In this document: positions 10,053 to 57,200 of the stretch, one piece after another
How positions within the stretch are numbered: position 1 is the stretch's first letter
Layout of the letters: the number at the start of each line of letters is the position of its first letter
Source of the DNA: Nitrospinales bacterium
Lineage (GTDB): Bacteria; Nitrospinota; Nitrospinia; Nitrospinales; VA-1
Reading direction: 5' to 3'
Length of the DNA: 64,000 bases
NCBI GenBank assembly: GCA_965249625.1
Contig: OZ252246.1
Coordinates: forward strand, 1,854,365 to 1,918,364
Translations under genes and position numbers: made by a program
Notes under the pieces: model-generated
What the model was told of the DNA's origin: nothing
The model's input: the letters and a program-made list of their open reading frames with translations, nothing else
The model's database searches: none

Positions 10053-10200
10053 TTTTCTTGGCTACAAAGTTTCGGGTCTGCCAAAAACCCCCACAGTAAA
10101 ATCCTTGAGCGGAATCATACCATAAGAGGAGGTGATCCTTCGAGGGCCTCAGGATGACGACTAACCCTCTCCCTTATCTGGGAGACCCGTAAACTAGATT

Positions 10201-10282
10201 CGTCATCGCGAGCGACAGAAAGGAGCGCGGCGATCCAGTCTTTCTGGATTACTTCGTCGCCTCCGGCTCCTCGCAATGACGG
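10201..10282. repeat. 82-bp palindromic repeat unit (gtcat...cgag / ctcg...atgac type)
   Basis: The arms cgtcatcgcgag (10201..10212) and ctcgcaatgacg (10270..10281) are reverse complements at 11 of 12 positions. The unit is related in design to the gtcattctga modules of the two arrays. Confidence 0.6.
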
Positions 10283-10348
10283 ATAGAGCAACGCCCCTCA
10301 ATCCCATCGAATAAGCCAAACCCCTTGCGGTCAATCACCCCAGCCCTT

Positions 10349-10387
10349 GTGATATCCTCTCATTAACTTTCATGCCCCGAAGGGGAC
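10349..10387 (-). repeat. REP-like hairpin module M1 (complete copy)
   Basis: The reverse complement reads gtccccttcggggcatgaaagttaatgagaggatatcac, with a CCCC-TTC-GGGG stem-loop and a conserved tail. Confidence 0.75.
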
Positions 10388-10469
10388 TTTTAGAAAGAGG
10401 GGGCAAAACCTACTCAAGCCGAGGTAGCCGATTGCCTGCCAATAAGAGCTATGGCAGTGGGCTTCGCGC

Positions 10470-27954: not shown

Positions 27955-28000
27955 GCCCACTAGGCGTGGAGACCCTTGCATAAGTTGATAAAACAGAAAA

Positions 28001-28500
28001 GCGAGATTCTTCACTACGTTCAGAATGACAATGCGACCTCGTTCAGCATGACAATACTGGGCCATTTTGTCATCCTCGAGGAACCGAAGGCGACGAAGGA
28101 TCTCGCCTTGCACTAACTTGGGGATTACCCCTTCGGGGCACGAAAGCTTGAGTGAAACATCACGTCTTCACGGAGCCTGTGCTAAGCGAAGCCGAAGCAT
28201 TCAGAATAACAATGCGACCTCGTTCAGCATGACAATACTGGGCCATTTTGTCATCCTTGAGGAGCCGAAGGCGACGAAGGATCTCGCCTTGCACTAACTT
28301 GGGGATTACCCCTTCGGGGCACGAAAGCTTGAGTGAAACATCACGTCTTCACGGAGCCTGTGCTGAGCGAAGCCGAAGCATTCAGAATGACAATGCGATC
28401 TCGTTCAGCATGACAATACTGGGCCATTTTGTCATTCTGAGGAACAAGGTGACGAAGACGTGATATTTTTCCTTAAACTTCATGCCCCTAAAGGGGTAAA
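28001..28500. repeat. mosaic repeat array A
   Basis: The array contains gtcat(t/c)ct(g/c)a-type modules in both orientations, two M1 modules at 28128..28163 and 28309..28344 (+), and one M1 at 28460..28497 (-). It lies between the convergent genes ending at 27954 and 28545. Confidence 0.85.
28019..28448. repeat. 181-bp tandem direct repeat, about 2.4 copies
   Basis: Units start near 28019, 28200 and 28381. The track ORFs 28067..28297 and 28248..28463 are offset by exactly 181 nt and give near-identical peptides (SSRNRRRRRISPCTNLGITPSGHESLSETSRLHGACA...). Confidence 0.85.
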
Positions 28501-28544
28501 ACGCTCCGCGAGCCACTAGCAGATCATACTTTGCCACCGGTGGA

Positions 28545-35115: not shown

Positions 35116-35121
35116 AAATCC

Positions 35122-35378: not shown

Positions 35379-35397
35379 AACCTCATCAGACAAGTGG

Positions 35398-35500
35398 AAA
35401 AAGACGGAAGACATGGAAGAAATCCTCACCGAACATATCCAGAACAACCGCCCCGTTGACCGGCTAATCATTCCTTTCAAGCCCAAAAGCTAAAACTCTG
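35398..35500 (+). repeat. direct repeat R2 (orphan copy of ferredoxin gene 3' end)
   Basis: It encodes KTEDMEEILTEHIQNNRPVDRLIIPFKPKS plus a stop, against KTKEDMEEILTEHIQNDRPVDRLTLSFKAKS in the gene copy. It is followed by a weak hairpin plus T-run (ggggattaggttttaaccccctcttttt). Confidence 0.85.
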
Positions 35501-35709
35501 GCCGCCAAGGGGATTAGGTTTTAACCCCCTCTTTTTAAAGACTCAAGCCCGATCATTTGAGGGGTTGATGCTGGGGTGATTTATCTTCAGGTCTACCATA
35601 GGTTTATAGTTGCAGGTAAATCAGGGTGGGAGGAATTACCAATGTTCTTCCTGTCCCCTTTGACACGCTCCCTGAACCATTACAACTTGTTAAAATTAAT
35701 GGCAATAGA

Positions 35710-37149
35710 TCATAAACTCTCCAAATCTTCCTCTATCGCATCGCCAGCTTCCAGTAAATTATCAGTGATGTCTTCTAATTGAGGAATTGAATGACCTACA
35801 ATTCCTTCAAATGAGCCATACATTGATAAAATATTCTCTTCAACTTGTTTAATTTGCTCCTCCCGCTTAGCCCAACGGTTTTTAGTGGTTCTAATTTCTT
35901 TTTGAAGCTCCTCATTCATTCGGCTAAAACTGTCTAGACAATCAGAAATCCTGTTTTTGAACCCTGGAGAAGTTAAGTAACCATAAAGCTTTTCCATTTT
36001 TAGATTTTTACCCTCTAAGGTCTGATCTTTTTGATGCAATTCAATAATTGCATTTCTGAGAATTTTGGCTAGTGGAACAACTAAATCCATATTAGTTACC
36101 CAAACATTCCTGATATCACCAAAATTTGAGATTTCTTTAGGAAGAGTTTTAGATACCAATATAGAAAAGTTCGCATTAACTACCTTCTGATCAGCCTTTA
36201 ATTTATCAATCCAAGGATCTTGCCACAATTTAGTATTTTTGGATTCCCACAAAATAATGCCACAGGTCCTACCTTGAAGACGTATTGTTTGAACAATATC
36301 AGCACCATTGACACCAACAGGAACATCTTCGATGATATCCTCGTAAAAGTTTTCTTTTAAAGTAGCTTTTAATTGTTCTTCAGTTACTTCTCCTTGTATT
36401 TGCTGTGATCCTTGTTCCACCGTTTGCTTTAAATTATTGATTTCTTTTCTAAGAAGCTCAATGGTTTTTTCTTTTTCCCCAAGTTTTTGCCTGGATTCAC
36501 TTTGAGTTTGATCTTGGGTTTCTTTTATTAGTTTTTCTTTGTTGAAAAGAAAATCCTTTTCCATCTCCCTTTTTTTGTCTTCTAATTGATCCTTTTGTTT
36601 AATGAATTCCAATTCTAAGTCTTTACGCTCATTTTTTGCTTTTCTTAATTCTTCGTTTAGGTTTTTAATGTTGATTTCAACCTCAGCAATTTCCTTTTCT
36701 TTTTCAAAATCATATTTCTTTTTTAATTTACCTTTAGCTTCTATCACCTTTTTCTCCAATTCTCTATCAAAATCTTCTTTGGTTTCTTGCAATTTGCGTT
36801 CAGTTTTTCGGGCCTTTAGTTCGGCATCTTTTAGTTTTTCATTTACAGCCTGTTGTTCTTTTAGCTTTTCGTTTAAATCATTTAACTCTAATGAAAATTT
36901 GCTTTCCGCCTCATTGGTAAGCTCTATTTTTAAGTTATTTCTTTCTTTTAATAATTTTTCACTAATGGTTTTCTCAATTGACCCCTCTTTCTTTAATAAT
37001 GCTTTTTCTTTTTCAATTAACTCCTTTTCTTTTTCCTTGGCCTCTGATTCTATTTCAGTCCTCAACTCCTGGGCTATTTGACTAGTAAGGACATCAGTTA
37101 AGGGGATTTCTGATTTACAATTAGGGCACGTAAGCAGTTGTTCAGCCAT
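35710..37149 (-). CDS. DUF2130-family protein: zinc ribbon, long coiled coil, C-terminal PD-(D/E)xK-like domain
   Basis: The N-terminus has CPNCKSEIPL. About 230 aa of K/E-rich heptad-like sequence follows. The C-terminus reads GADIVQTIRLQGRTCGIILWESKNTKLWQDPWIDKLKADQ (a D...ExK arrangement). The gene is markedly AT-rich: I counted 17 G+C in the 60 nt of line 36601. Confidence 0.8.
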   Translation of the reverse strand: MAEQLLTCPNCKSEIPLTDVLTSQIAQELRTEIESEAKEKEKELIEKEKALLKKEGSIEKTISEKLLKERNNLKIELTNEAESKFSLELNDLNEKLKEQQAVNEKLKDAELKARKTERKLQETKEDFDRELEKKVIEAKGKLKKKYDFEKEKEIAEVEINIKNLNEELRKAKNERKDLELEFIKQKDQLEDKKREMEKDFLFNKEKLIKETQDQTQSESRQKLGEKEKTIELLRKEINNLKQTVEQGSQQIQGEVTEEQLKATLKENFYEDIIEDVPVGVNGADIVQTIRLQGRTCGIILWESKNTKLWQDPWIDKLKADQKVVNANFSILVSKTLPKEISNFGDIRNVWVTNMDLVVPLAKILRNAIIELHQKDQTLEGKNLKMEKLYGYLTSPGFKNRISDCLDSFSRMNEELQKEIRTTKNRWAKREEQIKQVEENILSMYGSFEGIVGHSIPQLEDITDNLLEAGDAIEEDLESL

Positions 37150-40903: not shown

Positions 40904-41055
40904 CCAAGGTTATTTTCCTGTTCCTTTGACGGCTTTTTAGCTAGAATAGGCGCGGGTTTGGGTAAAATTAAAATGCTCCTCAAAACAAACATTGTATCCC
41001 GTTTAATCCCTGGAGACCCGTAATCACTTGAACCATCAAAAAGAAAGACCGTCTT

Positions 41056-42480
41056 ATGTACGGAGTTATACTGGCCGGGGGAAGCGGCACCCGGTTCTGG
41101 CCTAAAAGCCGCGAACAAAGCCCAAAACAACTGCAGAAAATCGTTGGCACCGGAACCATGCTTCAAAACACCGTTCAACGCCTGCTGCCCCTGGTTTCTA
41201 TTGAAAATTTATACCTGTGCACCAACCATCAGCAAGCGGTCGAGACCCTTCGCCAGCTGGATTCCTACGGTTTTTTCCCCGATCATCTCATGGCAGAACC
41301 CTGCAGCAGAAATACCGCATTAGCAATCGGTTTGATGGCAAAAGTAATCATCGAAAAAGATCCTGGTGCGGTCATGGGTGTTTTTCCCGCTGACCATGTT
41401 GTAGCGAACTCTGAGAACTTTATCAAGACACTTCAAAGGTCAGAAACTCTGGCCAAAAAGGGTTATCTCGTTACCCTTGGTATCCCGCCGACCCGGCCTG
41501 AAACCGGATTCGGTTACTTGCAACAGGGAGCTGAAATAGAAGATGGAATCTATCAGGTAGAACGGTTTGTAGAAAAACCTGGCCGACCTGAGGCTGAACA
41601 ATATTTAGAGAATGGCTATTATTTTTGGAATTGCGGAGTCTTCGTCTGGAAGGCTTCTGTCATTCTTGAGGAATTGCAACAGCATGCAGAAAATATTTAT
41701 TCACAGCTTGAAACTATTGCCAGATGCATCCGGAACGCAAAAGGAAAATCCGCCTATCTGGAACTGGATGAAAGGGGCCGCAGCCTTTTTTCTTCCCTGC
41801 CCAGTCTTTCCATCGACTGTGCGGTCATGGAAAATTCGTCAAAGGCAGTCCTCATCCCTGCAGATATCGGTTGGAACGATGTCGGTGCCTGGACTGCTTT
41901 GGACGATGTATCCAAAAAAGATTCTAAAGGTAATATCATCAGCGGAAATGTTCTGGTTCAAGATTGCAGCAACTCCATAATCCAGGCGCAAAATCGGCTC
42001 ATCGCTGTATTGGGATTAAAAGATACAATCGTGGTGGACAGTCCCGATGCCCTCCTGGTCTGCGCCAAGGAGCGTTCCCAGGATGTAAAAAAACTGGTGG
42101 AGTCTCTCAATGAAAACGGCCACCCTGAAGGCAAACAGCCTGCTACCGTTAATAAACCATGGGGGTCCTATACGGTATTGGATTCAGGGTCTTCTTATGT
42201 GCTAAAGCGTATCGAAGTCTTGCCCGGAGAAGCACTCAGCCTGCAATCTCATCAGCACCGCAGTGAACATTGGACTGTTGTCTCCGGCTCAGCGGAAGTG
42301 GTGCGGAACAAAGAAACTTTTCAATTAAAAAGTAACGACTCCATCACCATCCCCAAAAATACCAGGCACAGACTGGGGAACCCAGGTTCCGACCTGCTAA
42401 TAATTATTGAAATTCAGTTTGGCCATCTCCTGGATGAATCCGACATCTCACGTTACGAAGACCGCTACGGTCGTTGCTGA
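41056..42480 (+). CDS. manC: mannose-1-phosphate guanylyltransferase / mannose-6-phosphate isomerase (bifunctional type)
   Basis: The N-terminus is VILAGGSGTRFWPKSR. The C-terminal cupin reads KPWGSYTVLD...RIEVLPGEALSLQSHQHRSEHWTVVSG. Confidence 0.9.
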   Translation: MYGVILAGGSGTRFWPKSREQSPKQLQKIVGTGTMLQNTVQRLLPLVSIENLYLCTNHQQAVETLRQLDSYGFFPDHLMAEPCSRNTALAIGLMAKVIIEKDPGAVMGVFPADHVVANSENFIKTLQRSETLAKKGYLVTLGIPPTRPETGFGYLQQGAEIEDGIYQVERFVEKPGRPEAEQYLENGYYFWNCGVFVWKASVILEELQQHAENIYSQLETIARCIRNAKGKSAYLELDERGRSLFSSLPSLSIDCAVMENSSKAVLIPADIGWNDVGAWTALDDVSKKDSKGNIISGNVLVQDCSNSIIQAQNRLIAVLGLKDTIVVDSPDALLVCAKERSQDVKKLVESLNENGHPEGKQPATVNKPWGSYTVLDSGSSYVLKRIEVLPGEALSLQSHQHRSEHWTVVSGSAEVVRNKETFQLKSNDSITIPKNTRHRLGNPGSDLLIIIEIQFGHLLDESDISRYEDRYGRC

Positions 42481-42519
42481 TCTTGTCCGCCCTGAAAATA
42501 GTGTGCAACGACCGGAACT

Positions 42520-44052
42520 TTAATTTTTCGGCAATGAAATCACAAAATAATTTTTAATGGACTTTGAGTCGACCAGCCGGTTGGCGTATGCGCCGGCCTG
42601 ATCCTTGGCAGCAAATTGTCCGACCCTGATTTTATACCAGTGCCCTCCGGCTCTTCGGATGTCCTTGACGACGTAGAGGCCTTCGATCCCTTTATTTTTA
42701 AGACGCCGGATCATCTTATCCGCATGTTTGGCAGAAATGACCGCGGCAATTTGAATGGTGTATACCCTGTCTTCCTTTTTTATTTGTGCCAGTTTTGATA
42801 TAAGCATCGATGTTAAAGACGGGGAAGACAGGTTATCCTCATTTTTCGAAACCAATTCGCTGAAGCCAAGGGCCAGCATAATTGAAACGGAAAGAACCGC
42901 AAAGCTGACCAGTTTGGCCCTCAACGAGAGTTGTCCGAACTGGATGAGGCCTTCAAGAACCTGAAGAAGGATCCATTTAAATCCAATTAAAATTTTGCGG
43001 GCCAGCCAACCGAACCCTCTCCTTAATATTGTCATTCGGCCTGCAACCAGGCCCATCTCCACTTTCAGGCGTTTCAAATCCTGAAGATCTTCCCGGCGGA
43101 AAAGTTTTATCTTTTTCAGTTTGGAAGCGATCCGGTTTTCCTCAGACTGTCTTCTAGCCTCCGCCTGCTGGTCAGAACTCAAGCCCGCAAATACTTCTCC
43201 GCATTTCTGGTGCAATTCTGGCGCAACCCCGGCAAGATTCCCCTCACAATAACTATGGGCAAGATAGTTCTTAATTTCTTCTTCCTCTTTAACCGAATAA
43301 TTCAACGCAAACAGGTAAAACCTCAAGGCCAACTCATCCGTTCTTTTGTGAGCCAGGTAAATAGGCAGGGCAAATTGGATAATTTCACTGGAAAGCTCAC
43401 TCTGATCTTCCAACGCACTCAAGAATAGCGGTTCAACTTTTCCGGACCATTGTCCAGCCTCTAGAAACAGGCTGGACAGGTAATGAGTTAAAGCGGGGTC
43501 ATGAATTTCCTCCTGCTGCACCAGGACGAGAAGCAGATCCATTTCCTCCCGGGTGAGTTCCCGGCCCTGGTTCAGAATAGCAAGGAGCGGCTTGCGAAAA
43601 CGCGAATCCCCGGGGCTTTGCAAAAAGGCCTGCACATAAATATTCAAGGCCCTGGGGGTTTCATCCCCAATTGATAGCAGGTAGTCCGCGTATAACAGGA
43701 CTCCAAGAATCCGATACTGCTTGCCCGTTTCCGGTAAAAAATAAGAGGAGTAGGTGAAATTCAGGAGATTTTCATACTGGTTTTTAATATCGTCAGGGTT
43801 TGACTGGGGAGGAAAATTTTTAAGAAAGTGCAGAGCGTTAAAAAAACGTTGTTCCCCTACCATCCCATACGCAATAAACCCAAAAAACAGGCAGACGAGG
43901 AAAATCGCCCACTGGATCGGAGCATCGTCAAACAGAACGTTTGGAAGTGCCACCTCGTGCAGAAAAAACAGAAGCGTGAAACCCAATCCAAAAATCAGGA
44001 TTAACGAGACGGCGATTCGGGCCAGATAAAATTTAAGGGTCTGGTACAGCAT
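42520..44052 (-). CDS. SPOR-domain membrane protein
   Basis: TM segments lie at the N-terminus and near residue 370. The C-terminal SPOR-like domain is YTIQIAAVISAKHADKMIRRLKNKGIEGLYVV...WYKIRVGQFAAKDQAGAYANRL. It overlaps the PBP gene stop by 20 nt. Confidence 0.7.
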   Translation of the reverse strand: MLYQTLKFYLARIAVSLILIFGLGFTLLFFLHEVALPNVLFDDAPIQWAIFLVCLFFGFIAYGMVGEQRFFNALHFLKNFPPQSNPDDIKNQYENLLNFTYSSYFLPETGKQYRILGVLLYADYLLSIGDETPRALNIYVQAFLQSPGDSRFRKPLLAILNQGRELTREEMDLLLVLVQQEEIHDPALTHYLSSLFLEAGQWSGKVEPLFLSALEDQSELSSEIIQFALPIYLAHKRTDELALRFYLFALNYSVKEEEEIKNYLAHSYCEGNLAGVAPELHQKCGEVFAGLSSDQQAEARRQSEENRIASKLKKIKLFRREDLQDLKRLKVEMGLVAGRMTILRRGFGWLARKILIGFKWILLQVLEGLIQFGQLSLRAKLVSFAVLSVSIMLALGFSELVSKNEDNLSSPSLTSMLISKLAQIKKEDRVYTIQIAAVISAKHADKMIRRLKNKGIEGLYVVKDIRRAGGHWYKIRVGQFAAKDQAGAYANRLVDSKSIKNYFVISLPKN

Positions 44053-46111
44053 TTCTTTTTTCAGATTGTTTGGAATTCATGGGTTCACTTTTCGGATCAG
44101 GAAGAAGCCCGGTTTCATCCGGCTCCGAGTCTTCAGGCAAAGCGGGAGGCACCGAAAGGTCCACACCTTCTTTAACCGCAACCTGCAAAGTCTCAAGGGA
44201 AAACTCATCAGCAAGATAACCTGTCTGCACATCCACGGTGGCAAATTTAACTTTTTCCGGAACAGGAAATTTCACCGGACTTTTCCCCTCCAGTACCTTC
44301 TGCATAAAAAACACCCAGATGGGAGCGGCGGCACTGGCACCAGTTAAACCTTTACCGGATTTGACTTTCATAGGTTCATTATTATCAAAGCCCACCCAGA
44401 CCGAAGCTGAGATATCTTTTGTAAAAGCATTGAACCACGCATCCTTAAAGTCATTGGTCGTTCCCGTTTTGCCCCCGGCGGGGTGACGAAAACCCATCCT
44501 CCTTACCACCCGTCCGGTGCCTCCATCTATCACTCCTTGCATCATGTTCAGAAGCGGGAAAAGGGAATCAGGCAAAAACTGTTGCACCCCTTGATAGTAA
44601 TGCTCATAAAGCCGGTTGCCTTGGAAATCCTCAATGTGCTGGATCAAATAAGGTTCATTATAAATTCCCAGGTTGGCGATAACACTGTAGGCGGATGCCA
44701 TTTCATAAGGGGATAAACCGGAAGTCCCCAGAGCAAGGGAAAGGTTTTTACCTAACGGACTTTTAATACCAAACTGCCGTGCCGTACGAATCACTTTTTC
44801 CGACCCGACCTCATTAATCAGTTTCGCAGAAATAATGTTAATGGATTTCATCAGAGCTTTTTTAAGAATAATACTTCCTGCAAACTCTTCATCGAAATTC
44901 TGTGGACTCCACGGTTCGCTGCCGGGAACATCTATGGTCAGCGGCTCGTCCACCACCACTGTGGCGGGTGAATAACCCAACTCTTCCATAGCCGTAAAAT
45001 ACACAAACGGTTTGAAGGAAGAACCTGGAAGGCGGTTGTTCGATACCGCTCGATTGAATTGACTGTAGGAGTAGTCTCTTCCACCAAGCATGGCCCGCAC
45101 AGCACCGCTTTTATTTTCTATCGCCACTAATGCCACCTGAAGTGGACCCGCACCCGGCTCCTTGACGACTCTGCCTTCCAAAGCCTCCAGATGATTGCGG
45201 GCACTTTTAAAAGCAAGCTTCTGGTAACGCGAATCCAGTGTAGTAAGAATTTTTAAGCCGCCAAAATGCACAAATTCTTTGCCATAATCCTTTTCTATTT
45301 GCTCCAGCACCTGATCAACAAAATAAAGATTGGGACCCGAATCTACCCGGGGATTAACCAGATCAATATTGGACTGAAGGGCCAATTCTTTCTCTTCAGC
45401 GGTAATCAGGTTTTCACTGACCATCCGGTTCAACACATACTCCGTTCTTTTCATCGCTCTTTCATAATGCGAGAACGGGTTGGCATTATTGGGAGAGTTG
45501 GGGAGGCCCGCAAGAAGAGCCGATTGCAGCAAAGTCAGATCCTTGGCACGTTTTCTAAAATAGACTTGCGCCGCCTCTTCCACACCATAAGCGCCGCTAC
45601 CGAAATATATCTGATTGCAATAGGCTTGAAGAATCTGGTCTTTATTGAAAGTCGCCTCCAATTGAAAAGCAATCAATAGTTCCTTGATCTTGCGCACCCA
45701 GTTTCTCTCAAAAGAAAAAAACAGGTTTTTGGAAAGTTGCTGAGTGATCGTGCTTCCCCCCTGAGCAATCCTTTTTTCACGAAGGTTGGTCAATAACGCA
45801 CGCACCAATCCCCTGTGATCTATTCCGCTGTGGCGATAAAACCGGGAATCTTCAACAGCTATAATGGCTTTTGTGAAAAAGGGCGCAATATCCTCAAGAG
45901 CAACAGGATGCCTCTCACCAAGAATCTTGATGCGGTCACCATCCGAAGAATAAATTTCTGTCGGAAGGCTCAGGTTGATATGTTGCAGGTTTTTGGGAAG
46001 CTGGGGCAAGTCCTGGTTTAACCAGAAGTACAGACCCGCCACAACCAGAACCACAAAAAGAATTAAAGTTACCAGAACCAGATTCAGGGTATGGAGTAAG
46101 CGGTCGGTCAA
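44033..46111 (-). CDS. class A penicillin-binding protein (PBP1A-type transglycosylase/transpeptidase)
   Basis: GT51 motifs are EDSRFYRHSGID and GGSTITQQL. Transpeptidase motifs are SSFKPFVY (SxxK) and KTGTTND (KTG). Confidence 0.92.
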   Translation of the reverse strand: MTDRLLHTLNLVLVTLILFVVLVVAGLYFWLNQDLPQLPKNLQHINLSLPTEIYSSDGDRIKILGERHPVALEDIAPFFTKAIIAVEDSRFYRHSGIDHRGLVRALLTNLREKRIAQGGSTITQQLSKNLFFSFERNWVRKIKELLIAFQLEATFNKDQILQAYCNQIYFGSGAYGVEEAAQVYFRKRAKDLTLLQSALLAGLPNSPNNANPFSHYERAMKRTEYVLNRMVSENLITAEEKELALQSNIDLVNPRVDSGPNLYFVDQVLEQIEKDYGKEFVHFGGLKILTTLDSRYQKLAFKSARNHLEALEGRVVKEPGAGPLQVALVAIENKSGAVRAMLGGRDYSYSQFNRAVSNNRLPGSSFKPFVYFTAMEELGYSPATVVVDEPLTIDVPGSEPWSPQNFDEEFAGSIILKKALMKSINIISAKLINEVGSEKVIRTARQFGIKSPLGKNLSLALGTSGLSPYEMASAYSVIANLGIYNEPYLIQHIEDFQGNRLYEHYYQGVQQFLPDSLFPLLNMMQGVIDGGTGRVVRRMGFRHPAGGKTGTTNDFKDAWFNAFTKDISASVWVGFDNNEPMKVKSGKGLTGASAAAPIWVFFMQKVLEGKSPVKFPVPEKVKFATVDVQTGYLADEFSLETLQVAVKEGVDLSVPPALPEDSEPDETGLLPDPKSEPMNSKQSEKRNAVPDP

Positions 46112-47007
46112 GGGCTTTCCTTCAAGGAAGGTGGAGTTCCATTAGAACTTGCATCAGAAATATCCGCTTTTTCAATTTGGGACATCATATTGTTGGCCAA
46201 TTCCACAGCCACAGGAATCAAGAGAATCCCCGTGTAGTAATCGGTGTCGTACTCAACTCCAAACAGCAAGTGTTGGACAGGTTCTCCAGCAGGCAAATCC
46301 GAAATGCCCACACGGGTGACATGATAATTCTTCCCCAAAAACCAGCGGGGTTCCGGGAAAACTGCTTTTTGGGTGGTTGCGTCCAGAGATTTCAAAACAG
46401 GAAGAAAATCGAAAATTGAGAAAATCCGGTTTTCAGTAAAATTCGCATCTTCAAGAGTTCCCCGCTTAACCGTCCGCGTAGCCTGAACCTCAAACAACGT
46501 GTCTACAGATAAGAACAATTCATGAATGGGAATGTTTTGGCGGTCAATGAATTGCAGGGTGATCCAGGGACCAAATCGTTTCAGAAAAATCCGATCCCAG
46601 TTTTTCCTTGAGTCCAGCTCAACCAAGTCGTAAGAAGAAATGATTTGCTCCGACCATGGCCCAGGAAAATCATAATAGAGTTGGAGAAATTTTTCCCGGG
46701 AAACAACAAGGGGGAACCCCGGGGACAACCCTTCAAACAAATGCTTGAAGGAAGAAATTCCCAAAGCCGTCTCTTCCTGAAGATCCAGCGAGGACCGAAT
46801 GGACTTTATCTTGGCTTGCGCTACCAGAGATTGTCTATCCCGCTCCCACATTCTACCTAATTGAGGCCTTTTGTGGTTTTGCCACTTTAAGTGATAACCG
46901 ACACTTTTTTCAAACAGGTTGGTATAAAACTCAAGGGAAAGGAATGCGGAAAGAACAATCAACCCGGCTACACCGTGCCATGGCTTTCTGACACCGGCAA
47001 ATTTCAC
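46108..47007 (-). CDS. hypothetical membrane-anchored protein, first gene of the PBP operon
   Basis: It has a GTG start and an N-terminal TM segment (WHGVAGLIVLSAFLSLEF). It overlaps the PBP gene start by 4 nt. I recognise no domain. Confidence 0.55.
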   Translation of the reverse strand: MKFAGVRKPWHGVAGLIVLSAFLSLEFYTNLFEKSVGYHLKWQNHKRPQLGRMWERDRQSLVAQAKIKSIRSSLDLQEETALGISSFKHLFEGLSPGFPLVVSREKFLQLYYDFPGPWSEQIISSYDLVELDSRKNWDRIFLKRFGPWITLQFIDRQNIPIHELFLSVDTLFEVQATRTVKRGTLEDANFTENRIFSIFDFLPVLKSLDATTQKAVFPEPRWFLGKNYHVTRVGISDLPAGEPVQHLLFGVEYDTDYYTGILLIPVAVELANNMMSQIEKADISDASSNGTPPSLKESP

Positions 47008-47033
47008 TGAATATTATCTCACCGTAGTTTTTT

Positions 47034-48236
47034 ACCCGTACCGGGCATGAAGTTTAATGAAGAGGATATCACAGGCTCCTCAAGGATGACAAATTGGCGT
47101 CTCTTGTCATGCTGAACGACTGCTTTGTCATAGGGTTAGTGCAAGGCGAGATCCTTCGTCGCCTTAGGCTCCTCAAGGATGACAAATTGGCGTCTCTTGT
47201 CATGTTGAACAAAAGGATGACAAATTGGCCTTGTATTGTCATTCTGAACGCAGTGAAGAATCTCGCTTTTCTTGTCATTCGTGGGAGAGATCCTTCGTCT
47301 CCCTAAAGGGACGTGCCAGGCCTTAGGCTCCTCGAGGATGACAAACTGGCGTTTCTTGTCATTCTGAATACTTCGGCTTCGCTCAGCACAGGCTCCTCAA
47401 GGATGACAAAATAGCCTTGCATTGTCATTCTGAACAACTGCATTGTCATTCTGAACGAAGTGAAGAATCTCGCTTTTCCTGTCATTCGTAGGAGAGATCC
47501 TTCGTCTCCCTAAAGGGACGTGCCAGGCCTTAGGCTCCTCGAGGATGACAAAATGGCGTCTCTTGTCATTCTGAATGCTTCGGCTTCGCTCAGCACAGGC
47601 TCCTCAAGGATGACAAAATAGCCTTGCATTGTCATTCTGAACAACTGCATTGTCATTCTGAACGAAGTGAAGAATCTCGCTTTTCCTGTCATTCGTAGGA
47701 GAGATCCTTCGTCTCCCTAAAGGGACGTGCCAGGCCTTAGGTTCCTCGAGGATGACAAATCTGAATGCTTCGGCTTCGCTCAGCACAGGCTCCGCATTGT
47801 CATTCTGAACGAAGTGAAGAATCTCGCTTTTCTGTCATTCAGGGAGAGATTCTTCGTCGCCTTGTTCCTCAGAATGACAAACCACGTTGTTCCTCAGAAT
47901 GACAAAATGGGGTAACCTCGCTTTTCTTGTCATTCTGAATGCTTCGGCTTCGCTCAGCACAGGCTCCGCTTTGTCATTCTGAACGAAGTGAAGAATCTCG
48001 CTTTTCTTGTCATTCAGGGAGAGATTCTTCGTCACCTTGTTCCTCAGAATGACAAAATGGCCTTGCTTTGTCATGTTGAACAAAAGGATGACAAACTGGC
48101 CTTGTATTGTCATTCTGAACGAAGTGAAGAATCTCGCTTTTCTGTCATTCAGAGAGAGATTCTTCGTCACCTTGTTCCTCAGAATGACAAACCACGTTGT
48201 TCCTCAGAATGACAAACTGGGGTAATCTCGCTTCTC
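47034..48236. repeat. mosaic repeat array B (1.2 kb)
   Basis: It starts with an M1 module (acccgtaccgggcatgaagtttaatgaagaggatatcac). A dense patchwork follows, made of gtcattctgaacgaagtgaagaatctcgc, gagat(c/t)cttcgtc..., ggctcctcaaggatgacaaa and ttgttcctcagaatgacaaa modules. Many occur as mutually inverted pairs. The array fills the whole space between the giant gene's stop (48237) and the PBP operon start (47007). Confidence 0.9.
47281..47840. repeat. 207-bp tandem direct repeat inside array B (2 full copies plus 1 copy with deletions)
   Basis: Units are 47281..47487, 47488..47694 and 47695..47840 (shortened). Track ORFs 47303..47485 and 47510..47692 are offset by exactly 207 nt and are nearly identical. 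Confidence 0.85.
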
Positions 48237-51200
48237 TTAAAACCGGATATCGCCTTTCAGCATGATGGCGTGGTCAGTAACATTGCTGTTACTCTCTCTG
48301 CGCTCACCGGTCAGGTTCAGGTCAAACAACGCATCAAGTTCCCATCTCATCCCCAGGCGGTAACTTCTGGAAGAGTCGCCGAGAGTCATCTCACTGTAGG
48401 GAGTCAGCAGTCCCCGTCCGTCGGGAGCGGTCAGTCCGTAACCCAGGCGGGCATCCAATCGCGCGCCGTAACCCTGGTCACCGCTGACCTCATCGCCCAG
48501 GCCCTGCTGCCATACTTTTTGCGTGCCACTGCCTGTATCGCCGTAACCGGGACTCAGGCTGAACGACAGTCCCCGTCCGTTGCTGCTCTGCTCCAGAAGA
48601 ATCAGGCCGGAAACACCCCATTCCTCATAGTTGTCCCGTCCTACCAGGGTGCGGGCCCTGCCTTCCAAGGTCAGGCCGGCGGTCGGATCGGTGTAGCGGA
48701 AACCGGCGCCCAGCTCGGCCCCGAAACCGGTCTCGCCGTCACCGCCGTCATACCGCACTCCAGCCTCCAGGCTCGGTTCCACATAAGCCCCGTCAGCCAG
48801 CGTATGCTTATACGCCCCTTCCAGGATCATGCGCAACAGGCTGGACTCCACTTCCAGTCCCGCTATATCATCACTGCCCTCCACTTCCATCTCAGTCAGC
48901 AAAGCTGAACTCTTGAGCTGGAACAGGACCGGGCCTGCCCGCGACAACTGGGCATTGCTACCCACAGCCACGTTCCACGCTTCAACATCGCTCGATGCCG
49001 GGTCCTGCTCATCAGTGATCTCCAGGTCACCCCAGCCGTAGCCGGCAGTGGCCCACAGGTCCAGCTGTCCGGCCAGCGCCTCCCAGCTCACATAAGGGTG
49101 GACGCTGGTGAGGTCCAGCTCGTAATCGCCGCTGCTATCGTCGCCGTCCTGATAGTCCAGATCGCCATGGCTCCAGGATACTGTCAGACCCGTCAGCAGG
49201 TCGTCACGCGGTCGGCCATCCAGTCCCAGATGGGCGCTGAACAGGCTGCCGTCCCAGTCGATTGTCCCGCCGGAACCTTCGAGACTGCGGTAGCCGCCCC
49301 CGCCCCACAAGGTCAGGGAGGACAGTATCCCGCTGTCCGGTCCGCCCGCATCACTCAACGGCAGTACGAAGTCGGAGTTACCCAGCACATCCTTAAGACT
49401 CAGCGTACCGTCAGCAATGGCCTGGCCGTGGGCAGATGCCGCCCCGGCCAATGTGGACTGCCCGGCAATAGTGACGGACCGGGCATTGCCGCCGTTCCCA
49501 GCCTGACTGATACGTTGCGTTATCGCGCTCACCGTCTGGTCCGCTATGGCACGCGCCATTTCCGGCAGGATCACGGCATTGAGGTCGGTAAACCCCTCGT
49601 CCGTCACATTGGTAACCCTCACCGTTACCGCAACTGCGTCGCTGGTCCCGCTCGCGTCATCGGTGGCGGTGACGGTGATTTCATAATCGTTGTCGGTGTT
49701 GGCATCGGTCGGCATCTCAAAGTCCGGCGGGGTGCTGAAGGTCAAGACGCCAGCGTTAGTGATGGAGAAGTCATCCGCATCGGCCCCGCCGAGGGCGTAA
49801 CTGGTAATGGTCCTGCTATCAGTCGTGGTCGCGCTGAAGGAGTGCACTTCTGCCGTATCATTCTCGGCAAATACTATCGGTGTTGTTGGTGGTGGAGTCA
49901 CAACCGGTTTGGTCGGGGTCGCGGCCTGCACGGCGGCGGTCGGGTTGCTGGTGACTGCTTTACCGCTACCCTCACCATCGGTGTAAGTGGCGATGACTCG
50001 AATGGTCCTGTCTTCATCGGTTGCCACCGGCGTGTAGGTTGCACCGGTGCCCGCGCCGCTGATGTCGGTGTAGGTACCGTCTCCGCCTGCACTTCGCCAT
50101 TGATAGGTGATGGTGCCAACTTCCACACCATCCGGCGAATCCGCGTCGGTTACCGTGCCGGCGGTCAATTCCACGCTAACCCGCGCGGTGCCGGTGATGT
50201 CGCTGATGGCACCCGTCTCATCCACATTGGTAACCGTCACCGTTACCGCCAGCGGTGCGCTTGCCAGGTTGCTTGGGACGCCATTGGTTTCCGTGGCGGT
50301 AATGGTGACCTCGTAGGTCTCGGTGTGTGCATCGTCTTCAAAGTCCGGCGGATTGTTGAAAGTCAATTCGCCCTTATTAGGAGCAGCGCTATTAGGAGCA
50401 ATCGAGAACAATGCCGCATCCGTGCCGCCAGTGATTGACCAGATGATGGCGTTGCCCTCGGCATCGGTCGCGGTGTAGGTCTCCACCGGGGTGTCGGCGT
50501 TCTCGGCATAATTCGGTGCTGCATTGCCACTGACTACCGGCGCGGTGTTAGCCGCTGCCGCCGTCGCCATGCCGTTCACGCTCGCCGCGCTCTCGGGGCC
50601 TGGGTTCGGGGTGGTGGCAGCATCCATCACGCTGTTCGCGGCAAGGATCAGGCTGAAGGTTGCCGCGGTCGGGGTGAAGTTGATGGTGTAGGCGGCACCG
50701 CTACCGCTCACGCTATTCACCGTGACAAAGGTGGAAGTGGAGAAAGCATCCACCACCAAACCGGTTACCGCCTCGTTGAAGGTGATGCCGTGATCCTGCG
50801 GCGTGCCAATCACACCTGCGGTAATGGTGCCGAGGGTCACCGTCGGCGCGGTGGTGTCAGGTACATCCGTTACTGTGTATGTTCTAGTTACCGAGGTAGC
50901 CGCATTGCCTGATGCATCTACAGAATCATAAGTGATTATGTAATCGTCTAGTGTGCCAACCTCAACAGTTCCCGTTGTAGTCACTGCAGAACCGTCATCA
51001 GTTGTGACTCCATCAAGTAAGTTAGGTGGTGCTGAACCAATTTGTAGTGTAACGGTAGAAGGAACAACTGTGATGACTGGCGCTGTGGTATCAAGCGTAA
51101 TGACTAATTCTGATGACGCACCAGATTCATTACCTGCTGCATCCGTAGCCGTTGCGGTGAAGGTGTTGGCGCCTTCAGATAGTGCAACTGCTGCAAATGA

Positions 51201-54200
51201 GAAATCCCCTGAGCCATCAGCAGTTGTTGTACCCGCTGAGGTTGTTCCATTGAATAGTGCTACAGTCGCTGCGGCCTCAGCCGTGCCCTCAATTGTGATT
51301 GGCGATGAACCAACAGTTGCCGGTGCTGTGGTAATTGCAGGAACTGCCGGTGCTGTGGTGTCCTCCACAGTAATTACAATTGATTGTTGGGCTGGTGTGT
51401 TACCTGCCGCATCATCCGGCGCATTATATAATACGGTGTAAACTCCTACAGCACTGGTGTCAGGTGTGTCGCCTGTAATTGCTACTGCTCCAGAGTAAGC
51501 CGGGTCATTATCAGTTACCGTAGCGCCAAGTTCAGTGTAAGTGTTGGTTGCAGTTAACTCTATTGTTTCACTAGATCCTGCTACTGCGATAACTGGTGGG
51601 GTAGTATCTGTAACGGTAACTGTTCTGGTTACTGTTTCCGCAGAATTTCCAGACGCATCATCCACATTAAAGGTTACAGTGTATGTATTAGCCACACTGG
51701 TATTAACCGTATCGCCACCAACAACTACACCACTTGCGATATCTCCATCAGCATCATCAGTGGCAGAATAGGTAAATGGCGTGTATTCCGCTCCAAGTTC
51801 AACAGAGAATGAATCTTCAACAACTGCGATTACTGGTAGGGTAACATCATCAGCCGTAGTAGTTGTAGTTACAGGCAGATCAGCAGAGTTGTCACTCGTC
51901 CCGGCAGCGTTAGTTGATGTGGCGTGATATGTATACGCTGTTCCGGCAGTCAATCCAGTATCAGTGTAGGATGTTTCAGTGGTAGTAGTTGTTATGGAAG
52001 CGCCATCTCTAAACAACTCGTATCCTGTGGCGCCATTCACTGCAGTCCATTGAATCACAATGCTGGTCGGAGTGACTGCTCCTTGTACAAGTACAGGTGC
52101 GGCAGGTGCTTCAATTGGTGTAGTCAAGGTAGTGGCAGCAACCTCGTTGGAATTAGCAGTTGTTCTGCTCCCCACTGTCGCGGTAATGACATACCTATAC
52201 TCGGTTGCAGCAGTCAAGCCAGTATTAGTGGCAGTCAATGCAGTGGTTGTTGGCACTGTTACATCAGCACCGCCCGCAACAATTCTGGTCAGGGTGTAAC
52301 TATCGGCATTATCCACTGCACCCCATGAGAGCGTTATGCTTGTATCAGTAATTGTTCCTGCGACAAGTACAGGTGGGGTAGTTACAACCAACACAGCGGA
52401 TGGGTTACTTTGCTCGGAAGCATCGTTAAGTGCTATGACGTGATAAGTGTAAGTTGTTCCAGGAGTCACGTCCGTATCAGTGTATGCTGGTAAATCACCA
52501 CCCAGAGTAGTGTGAAAAACCCTTGCTATGCAGCCGGTTTTATCAGACCTAACCAAGCAATAGGCCAAGGTGCCATCCACTGCAGTCCATGTAATCGTAA
52601 CACTTGTCGAAGTGACTGCTCCGAGAATGAGTGTGGGTGCGGCGGGTGCAGTTGGCGCAGGCAAGGTAGTTGCAGTAACCTCGTTGGAATTAGCACTTAT
52701 TCGGCTCCCAACTGTCGCGGTAATGACATACTTATACTCGGTTGCAGGTTCCAAGTTCTCATCAGTGGCAGTCAATGCAGTGGTGGTTACTGTTACATTA
52801 GCACCGCCTGCAACCATTCTGGTCAGGGTGTAACTATCGGCATTATCCACTGCAGTCCATTCAAGCACTACGCTTGATGCCGTAGTTGTTCCTGCAGAAA
52901 GTATCGGTGCGGCGGGTGGTTCAGTTGGCGCAGGTCCAGTCGTTATAGGTGCAGAATCTATAACTGCGTCAAGGCCAAGGAAAATACTAACCTCGCCAGT
53001 ATAATCATAGCCCACTGTTTCTGTGTGAATGTATGGGACGGCTGCATCATTAATGCTAAAGCCAGTGGTAGAACCAGGATCAAATTGAATTTCAAAATCA
53101 CCGGTGTGTGACGACGTGAAGGTTATAACTACTTTATCTCCGTCAGTCGCATGGGGTTCATCGTTGAGAGTGTACACGGCAGGTGAAGTTGGCGCAGCAT
53201 TAGTCCTTGCCTCAACCTCGTTAGAATCTGCACTTGTCCCAACAGAATTTGTTGCGGTAACGACATACTTGTACGGTGTCTCAGGAGTCAGGCCAGCATC
53301 AGTGGCAGTCAATACATTGCCTGTTGCCACTTCAATATCATTAATGCCATCAACAATTCGGGTCAGGGTATAACTGTCGGCATTATCCACTGCACCCCAT
53401 GAGAGCGTTATCGTTGTCGGAGTAACTTCTCCGAGAACAAGTGCGGGAGTAGCCGGTGCAGCGGTCGGCGTGGCGGTGGCTTCGTTTGACGCTTCGCCCC
53501 CGCCCGCCGAGTTCACCGCGCGCACTTGGAAGAAGTATGCGGTGTCGTTGGTCAAGCCGGTCACGGTGTATTCGGTCGCGGTGGCACTGTTTGGAATTGC
53601 TGTCCACGGATTGGTATCGTCATAAGTTCCCGCTGTTGTGCTTTGGCGAACCTCATAGCCGGTGATTGCCGCGCCGCCGGTTGCGCTCGGTGCCGTCCAG
53701 GTCAGCGTGACCGTGGTATCGCCCGCATCCGCCGTCAAACCGGTCGGCGCGGCGGGTGCTGTTGTTGTGTCAGCGGCGGTCGTTCCCGTGTTGGTCACAT
53801 AAGCGCCTGCCACTTCGGCGGTGGCGCCGCTGCCGGCTTTGGCGCGCACGCGCACAGTGTAGCCGGTGTCTGCCGTCAAGCCGGTGATGGCGGCGGTCTC
53901 GGCAGTCACCGCGACATTCGCAGCCGTGTAGGTGCTGTCGTCCGCGCCAGTCACTTTATATTCCACATCAAAGCCGGTGGTCGGGTCTTTGTCGGTGTCG
54001 GATCCTTGCGTCCAGGACACCGCGAAGGCGCTCTGGGCGGGCGAGCCCGCGTTGACGGTGACGCTGGCAATGGCGCGCGGTTGCGCCACATTGGGGATGA
54101 TGATGTCCACCATGTCGGTAACGGGCGAGTTGCCGCCGCCAGACAGGGTCACGCTCAACTCAAAAGTCAAGGTGGTGTCGGCGGTTACATAAGGCGCGGT

Positions 54201-57200
54201 GAAACTCGCATCCTCCATGTCCGAGCCGGTGATGGCCAGCGGGGTGGACGGCAGTGAGCCATTGGTCCCGGTGTGCGTCCATAAAATGGTCGGGTCGGTG
54301 CCAGGATTGGTGATGGTGCCATCCAGATTCACAGTCGTGTTTTCCAGAACGCCAGGTTGATCCGCGCCGGCATTCACCGTCAGGGCGGTATCCACGGTGG
54401 CGGTCGGCGTGGCGGTGGCTTCGCCTGACGCTTCGCCCGCGCCCACCGAGTTCACCGCGCGCACTTGGAAGAAGTATGCGGTGTCGTTGGTCAAGCCGGT
54501 CACGGTGTATTGGGTCGCGGTGGCGCTGTTTGGAATTGCCATCCAATCGACGACGGCGGCGGAGCCGGTGGTGTCATAGTCGCCCGTGGCGTCGCTTTGG
54601 CGATACTCATAGCCGGTGATGTCCGCGCCGCCGGTTGCGCTCGGTGCCGTCCAGGCCAGCGTGACCGTGGCATCGCCCGGCGTCGCCGTCAAACCGGTCG
54701 GCGCGGCGGATACGGTAGGCGGCGTGACCGTCACGGTATCGGTTGCCGCGCTGGTGGCAGTTTTGTTGCTACCCTCTCCATCGGTGTAAGTGGCAACGAC
54801 TCGAATGGTCCTGCCGACATCATCGGCATCCGGCGTGTAGGTTGAAGTGGTGCCCGCGCCGCTGATGGGGGTGTAGGCGCCGTCTCCGCCTGCGCTTTGC
54901 CAGGTATAACCATCACCCCTAACCGCGTCATCCGGGTCGGTTACGCTGCCGGCGGTCAATTCCTCGCCTACCCGCGCGCTGCCGCTGATGTCGCTGATGC
55001 TTCCCGGCTCATCCACATTGGTAACCCTCACCGTTACCGTAACTGCGTCGCTGGTCTCGGGCTCGCTGTCGGTGGCGGTGATGGTGATTTCATAATCGTT
55101 GTCGCCATCGCCATCGGTCGCTGACTCAAAGTTCGGCGGTGTCTTGAAGGTCAAGACGCCGACGTTAGTGATGGAGAAGTCACCCGCTCCGGTTCCGCCG
55201 AGGGCGTAACTGGCAATCGTCCTGCCGCTAGTCGCGGTCGCGGTGAAGGTGTGCACTTCTCCCCCGCCATTTTCGGCAAATTCTATCGGCTCTGTTGGCG
55301 CCACCACAGTCGGTTTGGTCGGGGTCGGCTCGCTCACGGTGACGGTGCGGGTCAGCGTGTTGGAGACATTGCCGGCGAGGTCGGTGGCGATGTAGGTAAT
55401 GGTGTAGTCGCCGGCGGTGTTGGTGTCCACTGCGTTCACTGTCATAGCGCCAGGCCCGGCAATAGTGCTCACCAGAGTCTCCCCACTCCCCACTCCAATC
55501 ACACCCCTATCACTGTAAGCGTCGCCGTGGGCAACGGTAAAGGATGAAGCGCCATTCAGTCTGATGACCGGCGCCGACACATCAATTCGAATCGCACTGT
55601 CGGTAGCGGGTTGGGCAAGGGTGCCGGCGGCGGCATCAGCGGCGGTCATTTCGGCAATGGCATACCTTGCCAACTCACCGTCGCGTGCCTGAACCTGCGC
55701 CGCGACCACCACATAGGTCGCGGTGTAATCATTGTCACTGCCTTTTGTCGCCGTGACAGTTTGCCCGGCGATGGTCACGCTTGGGTCGTCTGCCAATGCC
55801 TGATTGACCGTGAAGGCAAGGGTCAGGGTGTCGCCGTTTATGGCGTAATCACCGGGGTTATCGCTAACGAGCGTGGGTTCCCCTCCTGCGTTAAAGGCAA
55901 GGGCTACGGCGGCCACCGGTGTTGCAGTGGTAGTTGCAGTAAACTCGGCGGAAGGAGTACTTGTCCCAACAGAATTTGTTGCGGTAATGACATATTTGTA
56001 CGGTGTCTCAGCAGTCAAGCCAGTATCAGTGGCAGTCAATACATTGCCTGTTGCCACTACTACATTATCATCGCCATCAACAATTCGGGTCAGGGTATAA
56101 CTGTTGGCACCATCCACCGCACCCCATGTAATCTCTATGCTGGTATCAGTGACTTCTCCGAAAACAAGTGTGGGAGTAGCCGGTGCAGTTGGGGTCACGC
56201 CCGCGGCACGCACGGGGGTGGTCTTGTCGCTCCTGGCATTTTGGGTGCGGCCTTCCTCGGCATAGGTGACCTCGACTCTAATGGTCTTGCCGCTATCGGC
56301 TGGCTTCAGCATGTAGGTATCGGATGGGCCACTGGCGATGTCGGTGGCGGTACTGCCTAATCCCGTTGGCTCGCTTTCCCAACGATAATTGGTGCCGGTA
56401 ACATCGCCATCCATGTTGTCCTGGGTGACGAAATCCGGGTCGGTCGCGCTGGCGGTCAATACCTGCCCGACCTGAACGTCGCCGGCGATGGTTGCCGTGC
56501 CGTCTTCATCCACATTGGTAACCGTTACCGTTACCGCAACTGCGTCGCTTGCCTCGACCGGCGCGCCGTTATCGGTGGCGGTAATGGTGATCTCATAAAC
56601 ATTATCGCCGGCGACGACAGTGGAATCGTCGGGGTCAGCGACATCGGTCGGCACTTCAAAGTTCGGCGAAGCCCTGAAAGTCAATGCGCCATCCGCATCA
56701 ATCGCAAACAAACCCGCATCCGCGCCACCGACTGACCAGGTGATGGTGTCGCTCTCGGCATCGGTCGCGGCGTAGGTATGCACCGCCGCAACATTCTCGT
56801 CAACCGTTATCGCATCATCGCCATTGGTTCTGGTAATCACCGGCGCGGTGTTGGTCACGGTCGGGGCGGTCACGGTGATGACTACCGTGTCGGTGCCGCT
56901 TGCCGGGGGCGTGCCATCATCGGTGACGGTCAGTTCAAAGGTATAAGCCCCAGCCGTGGCCGGCGCGATGAAGGTCGCGGTCGGGGTGGCGGTATCCGCA
57001 TTAGTCACGGCGATTACCGCTGTCGGCGCAGGCGCGCTGTCATCGGTCATGGTATGCACCCAAGCGTAAGTCAGCATATTGTCATTGGAATCGATGGTAG
57101 CAGAGCCGTCCAGCGTCACTTCGGCACCGGCAACTGCATTAGCATCGGCTCCGGCATCGGCAGACGGCGCATAGTTTGCCGTGCCCTCTACACTCGCCGC

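Follow-up and report, generated by a model that had tools for sequence, protein, structure and literature searches.

Which kind of element separates a giant surface-protein gene from a PBP1A (penicillin-binding protein 1A) operon in the genome of a Nitrospinales bacterium? The intervening block occupies positions 47034-48236 of a 64-kb stretch of contig OZ252246.1 (hereafter the window, meaning the whole stretch that was analysed) and spans the entire gap between a 299-aa open reading frame (ORF) and the PBP1A operon on one side and the stop codon of the giant gene on the other. We propose that this array is a cluster of hairpins of the type that Ssn nucleases recognise in single-stranded DNA (ssDNA), that it resembles the bacterial interspersed mosaic elements (BIMEs), that it lies at an island boundary, and that it acts on ssDNA rather than on RNA. 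From the comparative sequence evidence given below, we put the probability of this reading at about 0.6. The modules of the array belong to the class that accompanies the Ssn family, which are small single-domain GIY-YIG ssDNA endonucleases (cd10448); in older terminology they would be called 'CGTC/TGTC-tagged REPs' (repetitive extragenic palindromes). In this way a block of repeats in Nitrospina, a marine nitrite oxidiser, that otherwise lacks an explanation would be linked to the Ssn ssDNA-nuclease system described in 2025.

Module anatomy of the array

The longest ORF within the array was 111 aa in the open reading frame listing, and a Pfam search with eight array ORFs returned nothing above threshold, so that a coding array was rejected. 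Tandem Repeats Finder detected a period of 207 bp with 97% matches (repeat family D1; Table 1). Beyond the 207-bp units, further copies at spacings of 145, 175 and 135 bp were located by a repeat finder (families D6 and D7), as was a 144-nt duplicate, 47785-47928 versus 48095-48238, with 93% identity. Because the tandem copies are 93-97% identical, the duplication was taken to be recent. The words TTGTCATYCTKRA and GAGATYCTTCRYY were counted 18 and 16 times in the window, against 0.01 and 0.03 expected, and their matches were confined to 47.0-48.2 kb and 28.0-28.5 kb. The block does not have the form of a CRISPR array, since whole 207-bp units repeat, 'spacers' included, and the modules alternate in orientation.

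An initial annotation, made from the letters of the window, had described this region as a locally expanded mosaic of short inverted modules lacking a credible ORF, with a 207-bp tandem unit (47281, 47488 and 47695), further units of about 175 and 135 bp, a module shared in reverse complement with a second cluster (array A), and flanking genes that are both on the minus strand. This description was borne out. All the modules that it quoted were recovered in place in the sequence 46800-48500, the tandem units agree with the output of the two repeat programs, and the local expansion is seen as tandem duplication of composite units. In addition, 47137-47184 is the reverse complement of 28250-28297, save for one or two mismatches, and the two minus-strand genes are the giant ORF, with its stop at 48237, and the 299-aa ORF, with its start at 47007.

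Modules were mapped on both strands by their heads (GTCATNNTNN) and tails (GAAGRATCTC), which resolved the array into six complete short modules on the plus strand, seven complete long modules on the minus strand and 13 orphan 5' half-modules (heads). Short modules are 27 nt in length (GTCATTCTGAACGAAGTGAAGAATCTC), and long ones 33, 36 or 56 nt. The two kinds are paired tail-to-tail with about 20 nt between them, and in each 207-bp unit a short (+) module and a 56-nt long (-) module, one of each, are accompanied by orphan heads. Complete modules follow the formula 5'-TGTC / AT-NNN / GA / (G/A)C-GNA-G(C/T) / GA / NNN-AT / C-3', that is, an unpaired conserved tag, then a stem of 5 bp whose first letters are AT, tandem G·A/A·G mismatches, an apex of the form C-GNA-G and a conserved C after the stem. 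For the short modules of the window this reads TGTC / ATTCT / GA / AC-GAA-GT / GA / AGAAT / C, while the long modules have extra G·A/G-C layers or a nested insert. The pattern GTCAT...ATC was present in all 13 complete modules of the window.

Distribution and association with Ssn-type nuclease genes

The modules had initially been regarded as a genome-specific system of the REP type or of the type of miniature inverted-repeat transposable elements (MITEs). The first part of this view stood, as the array is indeed a REP/BIME-like mosaic of inverted short palindromic modules; the genome specificity did not. When the core 27-mer GTCATYCTGARCGAAGYGAAGRATCTC was scanned over one genome per species, exact copies were found in at least 120 genome-contig stretches from many phyla, comprising Saccharibacteria, Nitrospirota, Acidobacteriota, Bacteroidota, Chloroflexota, Cyanobacteria, Firmicutes, Verrucomicrobiota, Planctomycetota, several proteobacterial classes, Aquificota and Helicobacter. 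A further 34 viral-contig stretches matched the 27-mer pattern. The window variant GTCATTCTGAACGAAGTGAAGAATCTC was found exactly in 12 of the at least 120 loci listed, including ones from Saccharibacteria (L001) and Bacteroidales/Bacteroidia (L005, L010). Among the matches listed, neighbouring modules at independent loci were convergent in 77 cases, divergent in 14 and tandem in 3, the usual layout being a convergent pair 4-70 nt apart. With such an orientation bias, convergent pairs could play the part of terminal inverted repeats in a putative MITE. At several Acidobacteriota/Saccharimonadales loci (L008, L025, L031, L101, L104) convergent pairs were seen nested inside an outer inverted repeat, CAGGCTGCGGAAAAA...TTTTTCCGCAGCCTG, which suggests a larger composite element in these lineages. 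A literature search with the module strings matched no paper.

In these DNA-selected loci (about 0.9 Mb), a GIY-YIG regular expression gave two matches, both of them small ORFs 15-20 nt past a module. A hidden Markov model (HMM) search of the same loci (932 kb, among the matches listed) returned three GIY-YIG homologues; two were less than 200 nt from a module and the third (L080) was about 300 nt from one. The module-adjacent protein has 93 aa and consists of a GIY-YIG domain only. Between Saccharibacteria, Chloroflexota, Nitrospirota, Deltaproteobacteria and Cyanobacteria, its homologues share about 70% identity, a level far above the expectation for vertical descent, which suggests horizontal spread of the clade.

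The association was also observed from the side of the protein. Of 80 metagenomic loci picked solely by similarity to the 93-aa GIY-YIG protein, 66 had a module within 150 nt of the gene, and module density across the 80 loci was 5.55 per kb near the gene versus 0.12 per kb at more than 500 nt from it (45-fold), with none in shuffled loci. Modules were found on both sides of the gene, and the stop codon was often inside the downstream module. Several annotated proteins of the clade carry C-terminal extensions (..SLRSG, ..SSLRSE) that correspond to read-through into the downstream module.

The relevant background comes from Neisseria, in which SsnA, a 94-aa cd10448 GIY-YIG protein, was characterised as a site-specific ssDNA endonuclease (Chenal et al., Nat Commun 2025, PMC11893778). 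SsnA binds the hairpin repeat NTS (CGTCATTCCCGCGMAVGCGGGAATCYRG) and cleaves just upstream of it, the 5' GTC tag and the C position after the stem being critical for both cleavage and binding; the enzyme is inactive on double-stranded DNA and on RNA, and binds neither (PMC11893778). NTS clusters near surface-protein genes, and transformation by NTS-bearing DNA is lowered by SsnA (PMC11893778). Many bacteria have SsnA homologues with 'Ssn-related motifs' (SRMs) on their flanks, and an architecture like that of an insertion sequence (IS) was noted by the authors (PMC11893778). When the consensus of the 93-aa clade was compared by tblastn with a plasmid collection, the one match from Neisseria gonorrhoeae, at 50% identity (pairwise E 1e-29), was in NZ_CP119142.1 (L321), a 2.17-Mb chromosome filed as a plasmid. 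This gene is immediately flanked by canonical NTS (cgtcattcccgc..gcgggaatc), and the 93-aa clade is therefore homologous to SsnA. An identity as UPF0213 was also considered and rejected: the sole PDB match was the UPF0213 protein BH0048, which is distant, and the clade is not UPF0213.

On viral contigs, homologues beside NTS scored 88-99 bits against the clade profile and had no short-type (S-type) modules nearby, whereas one homologue beside S-type modules scored 137 bits and had no NTS nearby. As the scores split by neighbouring motif, nuclease clade and motif class co-vary.

Two individual loci resemble the window array. On a Planktothrix agardhii plasmid (NZ_LR882964.1, L322, 1180-2110), an 82%-identical Ssn gene lies between a type IIL MmeI restriction-modification gene and the DISARM gene drmA, and is ringed by a mosaic of full modules and orphan heads like that of the window; this defence-island setting fits an 'ssDNA restriction' role. 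In the N. gonorrhoeae record (L321, 766-1387), a tandem array of convergent NTS pairs with a period of about 252-262 bp is located directly upstream of the ssnA homologue, and its architecture matches the 207-bp units of the window.

The layout of the modules could also be explained by selfish or neutral DNA only. According to this explanation the modules would be doublets of the REPIN kind, left behind as non-autonomous relics by an IS-like 'module-ssn-module' element; having accumulated here, as a block that later expanded through replication slippage or unequal recombination, they would have no host function. We consider this possible, though on the doubtful side. The 77:14:3 convergent bias is what REP doublets show, the Ssn gene is flanked by modules on both sides, the clade is about 70% identical across phyla, and the IS-like architecture reported in the Ssn paper (PMC11893778) points the same way, as do the 93-97% identity of the tandem copies and the 13 decayed orphan heads of the window. 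Orientation relative to the gene is not strict, however, since upstream of the gene the closest module is forward at 34 of 53 loci, and downstream of it reverse at 27 of 45, and no transposition activity is known for Ssn. A further point against it is that the array sits exactly on an island boundary, next to a surface-protein gene, which parallels the non-random clustering of NTS in Neisseria. Selfish DNA is in any case compatible with a cluster of Ssn targets rather than opposed to it, because target sites of selfish origin can still be cut. A strict gene-less element with a short module as its left end and a long module as its right end was rejected, lengths and orientations around the gene being too mixed.

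A more far-reaching version would make the convergent module doublets and the arrays non-autonomous copies of a mobile element that uses Ssn as its enzyme and spreads between phyla, the array and the motif that terminates it marking the integration boundary of a giant-adhesin island. We regard this version as unlikely. If true, it would mean hairpin-dependent single-strand mobility, analogous to that of REP-associated tyrosine transposases (RAYTs) and REPINs but on a different catalytic fold.

Hairpin structure and relation to known repeats

In 49 distinct modules from the protein-selected loci, the two sides of the stem paired within a module at 93.9%, versus 82.4% in shuffled sequences and 22-47% when the partner was slid, and six of seven stem pairs showed compensatory change on both sides. 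The hairpin has nine stem positions, two of them G·A, a loop of 3 nt (GNA) and a C-T-n tail. A logo of 113 sequences was anchored solely on the inner 11-mer GAGCGNAGCGA. In it, 94, 97, 104 and 95 sequences (83-92%) kept the T, G, T and C of positions -8 to -5, and 99 (88%) kept the C that follows the stem, conservation ending beyond the tag and this C. The apex of the pan-bacterial consensus is GCGAAGC, GCGCAGC, GCGTAGC or GCGGAGC, in each case a GNA triloop that is closed by C-G and contains a sheared G·A pair. This apex is identical to 'mini-hairpin DNA', d(GCGNAGC) (Hirao and colleagues; PMC13037366), which has a melting temperature of 76.5 C that conventional thermodynamic models do not explain, and which is a structural motif, not a genetic system.

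Comparison with NTS and SRMs revealed a number of likenesses. The modules are directional, with a GTC tag 5' of the palindrome, a stem that starts with AT and a C 3' of it; they are intergenic and form arrays of alternating orientation beside surface-protein genes; and their variants differ by nuclease clade. As semi-palindromes of 20-50 nt they have the size of SRMs and are hairpin-capable by covariation, though weak in single-module nearest-neighbour energy. In gene neighbourhoods, the module class is also tightly linked to an Ssn-type gene for a single-domain GIY-YIG protein of about 94 aa, the one that is 50% identical to the product of the NTS-flanked Neisseria gene. The differences lie in the details of the hairpin: NTS has a perfect 8-bp GC-rich stem, a 4-nt loop and the tag CGTC, whereas the modules have tandem G·A mismatches, a 3-nt GNA loop and the tag TGTC. 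Furthermore, long modules contain nested inserts, and the exact module sequence is common to many phyla.

Several results weigh against the array being a cluster of Ssn targets. The published SRM search pattern, HGTCWYN(0-2)YYVSBRHN(0-5)WNVSBRGN(0-2)RNCYNB, was found 0 times in the window and in 0 of 80 clade loci, against 8 times in a Neisseria control locus. By nearest-neighbour folding, single modules are weak (-0.8 kcal/mol for one short module, -0.8 to -5.6 kcal/mol overall, z about 0) compared with NTS (-10.6 kcal/mol), and strong structures form only as short+long pairs (-18.4 kcal/mol, z -4.4); the case for a hairpin in single modules is therefore made by covariation and by the G·A/GNA literature. 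The apex in the window is ACGAAGT, not the fully stable GCGAAGC, and with an outer A-T pair instead of G-C it is probably less stable than mini-hairpin DNA. Half of the array units are orphan heads, for which a full hairpin is impossible. Finally, a cognate nuclease was found neither within the 64-kb window (regular expression and HMM, six-frame translation), a further difference from NTS and SRMs, nor in the loci of the relatives (18-22 kb).

We nevertheless retain the interpretation of the array as a cluster of Ssn-type targets. The kind of element is a known one, that of Ssn/NTS-type repeats; what is new is a motif variant missed by the published search pattern, together with a new host lineage. 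A second, very widespread motif class, defined by G·A mismatches, a CGNAG apex and sequence conservation across phyla, escapes that pattern. Existing inventories of Ssn targets probably fall short for this reason, and Ssn genes recorded as having no SRM may carry these modules. The pairing of nuclease clade and motif would offer ready-made enzyme/site pairs for ssDNA tools.

The modules have a second set of relatives in the CGTC-tagged REPs, to which dRS3 and the Rickettsia repeats RPE-4/6 belong and which have no linked transposase (Di Nocera, De Gregorio & Rocco, BMC Genomics 2013, PMC3733652). The two groups have in common an unpaired tag, defined as CGTC or TGTC/CCTC and here TGTC, a stem whose first two positions are complementary A-T, a short unpaired tail, a predominance of inverted dimers, many of them heterodimers, with the capacity to form one large hairpin, and no association with a transposase. 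The REPs were described with Watson-Crick stems of 8-9 bp, loops of 4-5 nt and CCA-like tails, whereas the modules depart from all of these, with G·A pairs in the stem, a loop of 3 nt and a C-T tail. Nitrospinota was not among the five phyla of that survey (PMC3733652), and GTCATTCTGA, GTCATCCTGA, their reverse complements and GCGAAGC occurred in none of its supplementary files that were searched.

Palindromic units in alternating orientation, mixed with short and terminal motifs, with doublets predominant and local tandem amplification, are likewise typical of the BIMEs and REPINs of Escherichia coli. This BIME-like look, with terminal motifs at the cluster ends, would suit a classical REP/BIME mobilised by a RAYT (an IS200/IS605-type tyrosine transposase), or a MITE of a DDE insertion sequence. 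Either is very improbable. The E. coli elements have a GTAG tag and an HUH tyrosine transposase (the RAYT), whereas the tag here is TGTC and the partner gene, in 66 of 80 loci, encodes a GIY-YIG nuclease (no profile search for RAYT was made); CGTC-tagged repeats, moreover, are those without a linked transposase (PMC3733652).

The initial annotation had suggested a function at the level of RNA. Hairpins transcribed in the 3' untranslated region of the giant gene, or in the leader of the 299-aa ORF and PBP1A, would terminate, insulate or stabilise mRNA. Such a role has some appeal, as both flanking genes are on the minus strand, many tagged REPs are located downstream of genes and plausibly transcribed (Di Nocera 2013, PMC3733652), and promoter-like TTGTCA sites in the module heads exceed expectation. 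Folding of the minus-strand transcript, a check proposed with that annotation, gave a strongly structured molecule (-422 kcal/mol over 1229 nt), but this fails to discriminate between the hypotheses. Terminator-like sites were not enriched, with 3 in 46500-48700 versus 2.2 in shuffles and none on the minus strand inside the array, where no hairpin followed by a U-tract was found. A scan of the whole window at the Rfam gathering threshold was blank, and a permissive scan of the array produced only chance matches, similar to microRNAs or small nucleolar RNAs, far below threshold. Modules are present in both orientations, so that no single transcript strand is favoured. The conserved elements (TGTC as an unpaired tag, the 3' C, and the architecture of C-GNA-G with G·A) are features of DNA hairpins and protein recognition, of the ssDNA type recognised by Ssn, and the RNA version of NTS is not bound by SsnA (PMC11893778). 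The terminator or RNA-stability role was thus not upheld, and an RNA-level element is improbable, although the array may have an effect on RNA as a by-product.

Table 1. Positions of the module family, its terminal motifs and the adjoining giant gene in the window.
Feature	Position	Strand	Remark
Short complete module S	47238..47264	+	GTCATTCTGAACGCAGTGAAGAATCTC
Short complete module S	47445..47471	+	GTCATTCTGAACGAAGTGAAGAATCTC
Short complete module S	47652..47678	+	
Short complete module S	47799..47825	+	
Short complete module S	47973..47999	+	
Short complete module S	48109..48135	+	
Long complete module L1	47148..47183	-	GTCATCCTTGAGGAGCCTAAGGCGACGAAGGATCTC; type shared with 28250-28285 (+) of array A
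Long complete module L2	47287..47342	-	56 nt, nested insert
Long complete module L2	47494..47549	-	
Long complete module L2	47701..47756	-	
Long complete module L3	47846..47878	-	GTCATTCTGAGGAACAAGGCGACGAAGAATCTC
Long complete module L3	48021..48053	-	
Long complete module L3	48156..48188	-	
Candidate G·A/GNA hairpin (predicted)			d(ATTCTGAACGAAGTGAAGAAT)
207-bp unit, 2.5 tandem copies	47235..47759		Tandem Repeats Finder; repeat family D1
Array A, second cluster of the module family	28003..28460		181-bp unit x 2.4 copies
Third, small cluster	10134..10390		module GTCATCCTGAGGCCCTCGAAGGATC (-) and variant modules
Terminal motif of main array	47029..47070	-	GATATCCTCTTCATTAAACTTCATGCCCGGTACGGGTAAAAA; last element before core-genome homology resumes
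Terminal motif closing array A	28479-28501	+	
Terminal motif closing third cluster	10369-10390	+	
Giant ORF, >5252 aa, runs off window	48237..63995	-	stop codon abutted by array

Position at a synteny break

Nucleotide homology to a 94%-related Nitrospina genome extends from 40918 to 47031 and ends 3 nt short of the array. The conserved side holds the 299-aa ORF, followed by the PBP1A and SPOR genes, and the PBP1A homologues have 90-96% identity to proteins of metagenome-assembled genomes of Nitrospina/Nitrospinaceae. On this evidence an origin in Chlorobi, to which the GC-rich giant gene and a BchE-like radical-SAM protein had seemed to point, was rejected. The giant gene on the other side has about 60% GC, versus about 47% in the rest of the window, and an autotransporter beta-domain, cadherin and Big_13 domains at the C-terminus of its product. 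The end of homology and the GC contrast of the giant gene therefore put the array, with its terminal motif as the closing element, on the border of a variable segment, and this segment was probably acquired. A comparison of presence and absence in related genomes, also proposed at the outset, showed that in four related loci the array and the giant gene are both missing at this site. There, a 214-aa helix-turn-helix gene is found upstream of the 299-aa ORF, at a distance of 7 nt in two loci (L323, L324) and of about 50 nt in the other two (L325, L326). Given its differing GC and its absence from the four related Nitrospina loci, the giant ORF probably represents an adhesin island gained by horizontal transfer. 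A single small unit of the module family is found in the relative, at a distance of 1.3 kb.

A synteny break next to a segment of different GC is also where collapsed or chimeric repeats at a contig join might be suspected, the more so as short reads make it difficult to assemble a 207-bp tandem repeat with the right copy number. Point changes distinguish the copies (97% and 93% identity), unlike identical collapsed repeats, and similar arrays are present in finished records (the Planktothrix plasmid and the Neisseria chromosome). The module family recurs at three sites of the window, in a related genome and in finished records, which makes an assembly artefact extremely unlikely.

How might a cluster of Ssn-type targets act at this junction? 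Our model is built by analogy with Neisseria. When the DNA turns single-stranded, as incoming transforming or conjugative DNA or during replication or repair, the modules would fold. A cognate Ssn, which we infer to be encoded elsewhere in the genome, would bind the folded modules and cut a few nucleotides 5' of the tag, as SsnA does on NTS. The modules are in both orientations, so sites would be available on both strands. Recombination tracts or incoming ssDNA crossing the junction of core genome and giant adhesin gene would be cut short. The array itself grew by tandem duplication of composite units. Its position at the edge of an acquired giant surface-protein gene makes it a testable case outside Neisseria for clusters that modulate recombination or transfer of surface-protein loci.

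The terminal motif, of about 40 nt (GTGATAT..TTAAACTTCATGCCC-loop-GGGTAAAA), ends all three module clusters of the window (3 copies versus 0 expected, at 10369-10390 (+), 28479-28501 (+) and 47029-47051 (-)), and compensatory changes from copy to copy are seen in its small hairpin. Read on the other strand, the motif begins with ATGAAGTTTAA, a possible mini-ORF start. A candidate left terminal motif, GACCYTTGCATAAGT, was rejected, as it occurred once in the window and was not significant. The left flank of array A (27955-28003, gagacccttgcataagttgataaaa) resembles the flank of the single module unit in a related genome (L323, 7700-7810, gagacctttgcataagtcgaaaaa). It has one occurrence in the window and could represent a second terminal motif or an insertion site shared by orthology.

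Module heads (for example 47063-47092 on the minus strand) contain TTGTCA, which is similar to a -35 box. Promoter-like sites in the region numbered 6, versus 1.5 expected, and one of them is 56 nt upstream of the start of the 299-aa ORF. The array may supply a promoter for the PBP1A operon after displacing the ancestral upstream gene.

Elsewhere in the window, the stretch 35001-37000 is AT-rich (GC 0.31-0.39) and covers a 479-aa ORF (35710-37149, minus strand). The 94%-related genome differs here, between the ManC gene and the thiamine/PALP genes, and this stretch may be another variable segment.

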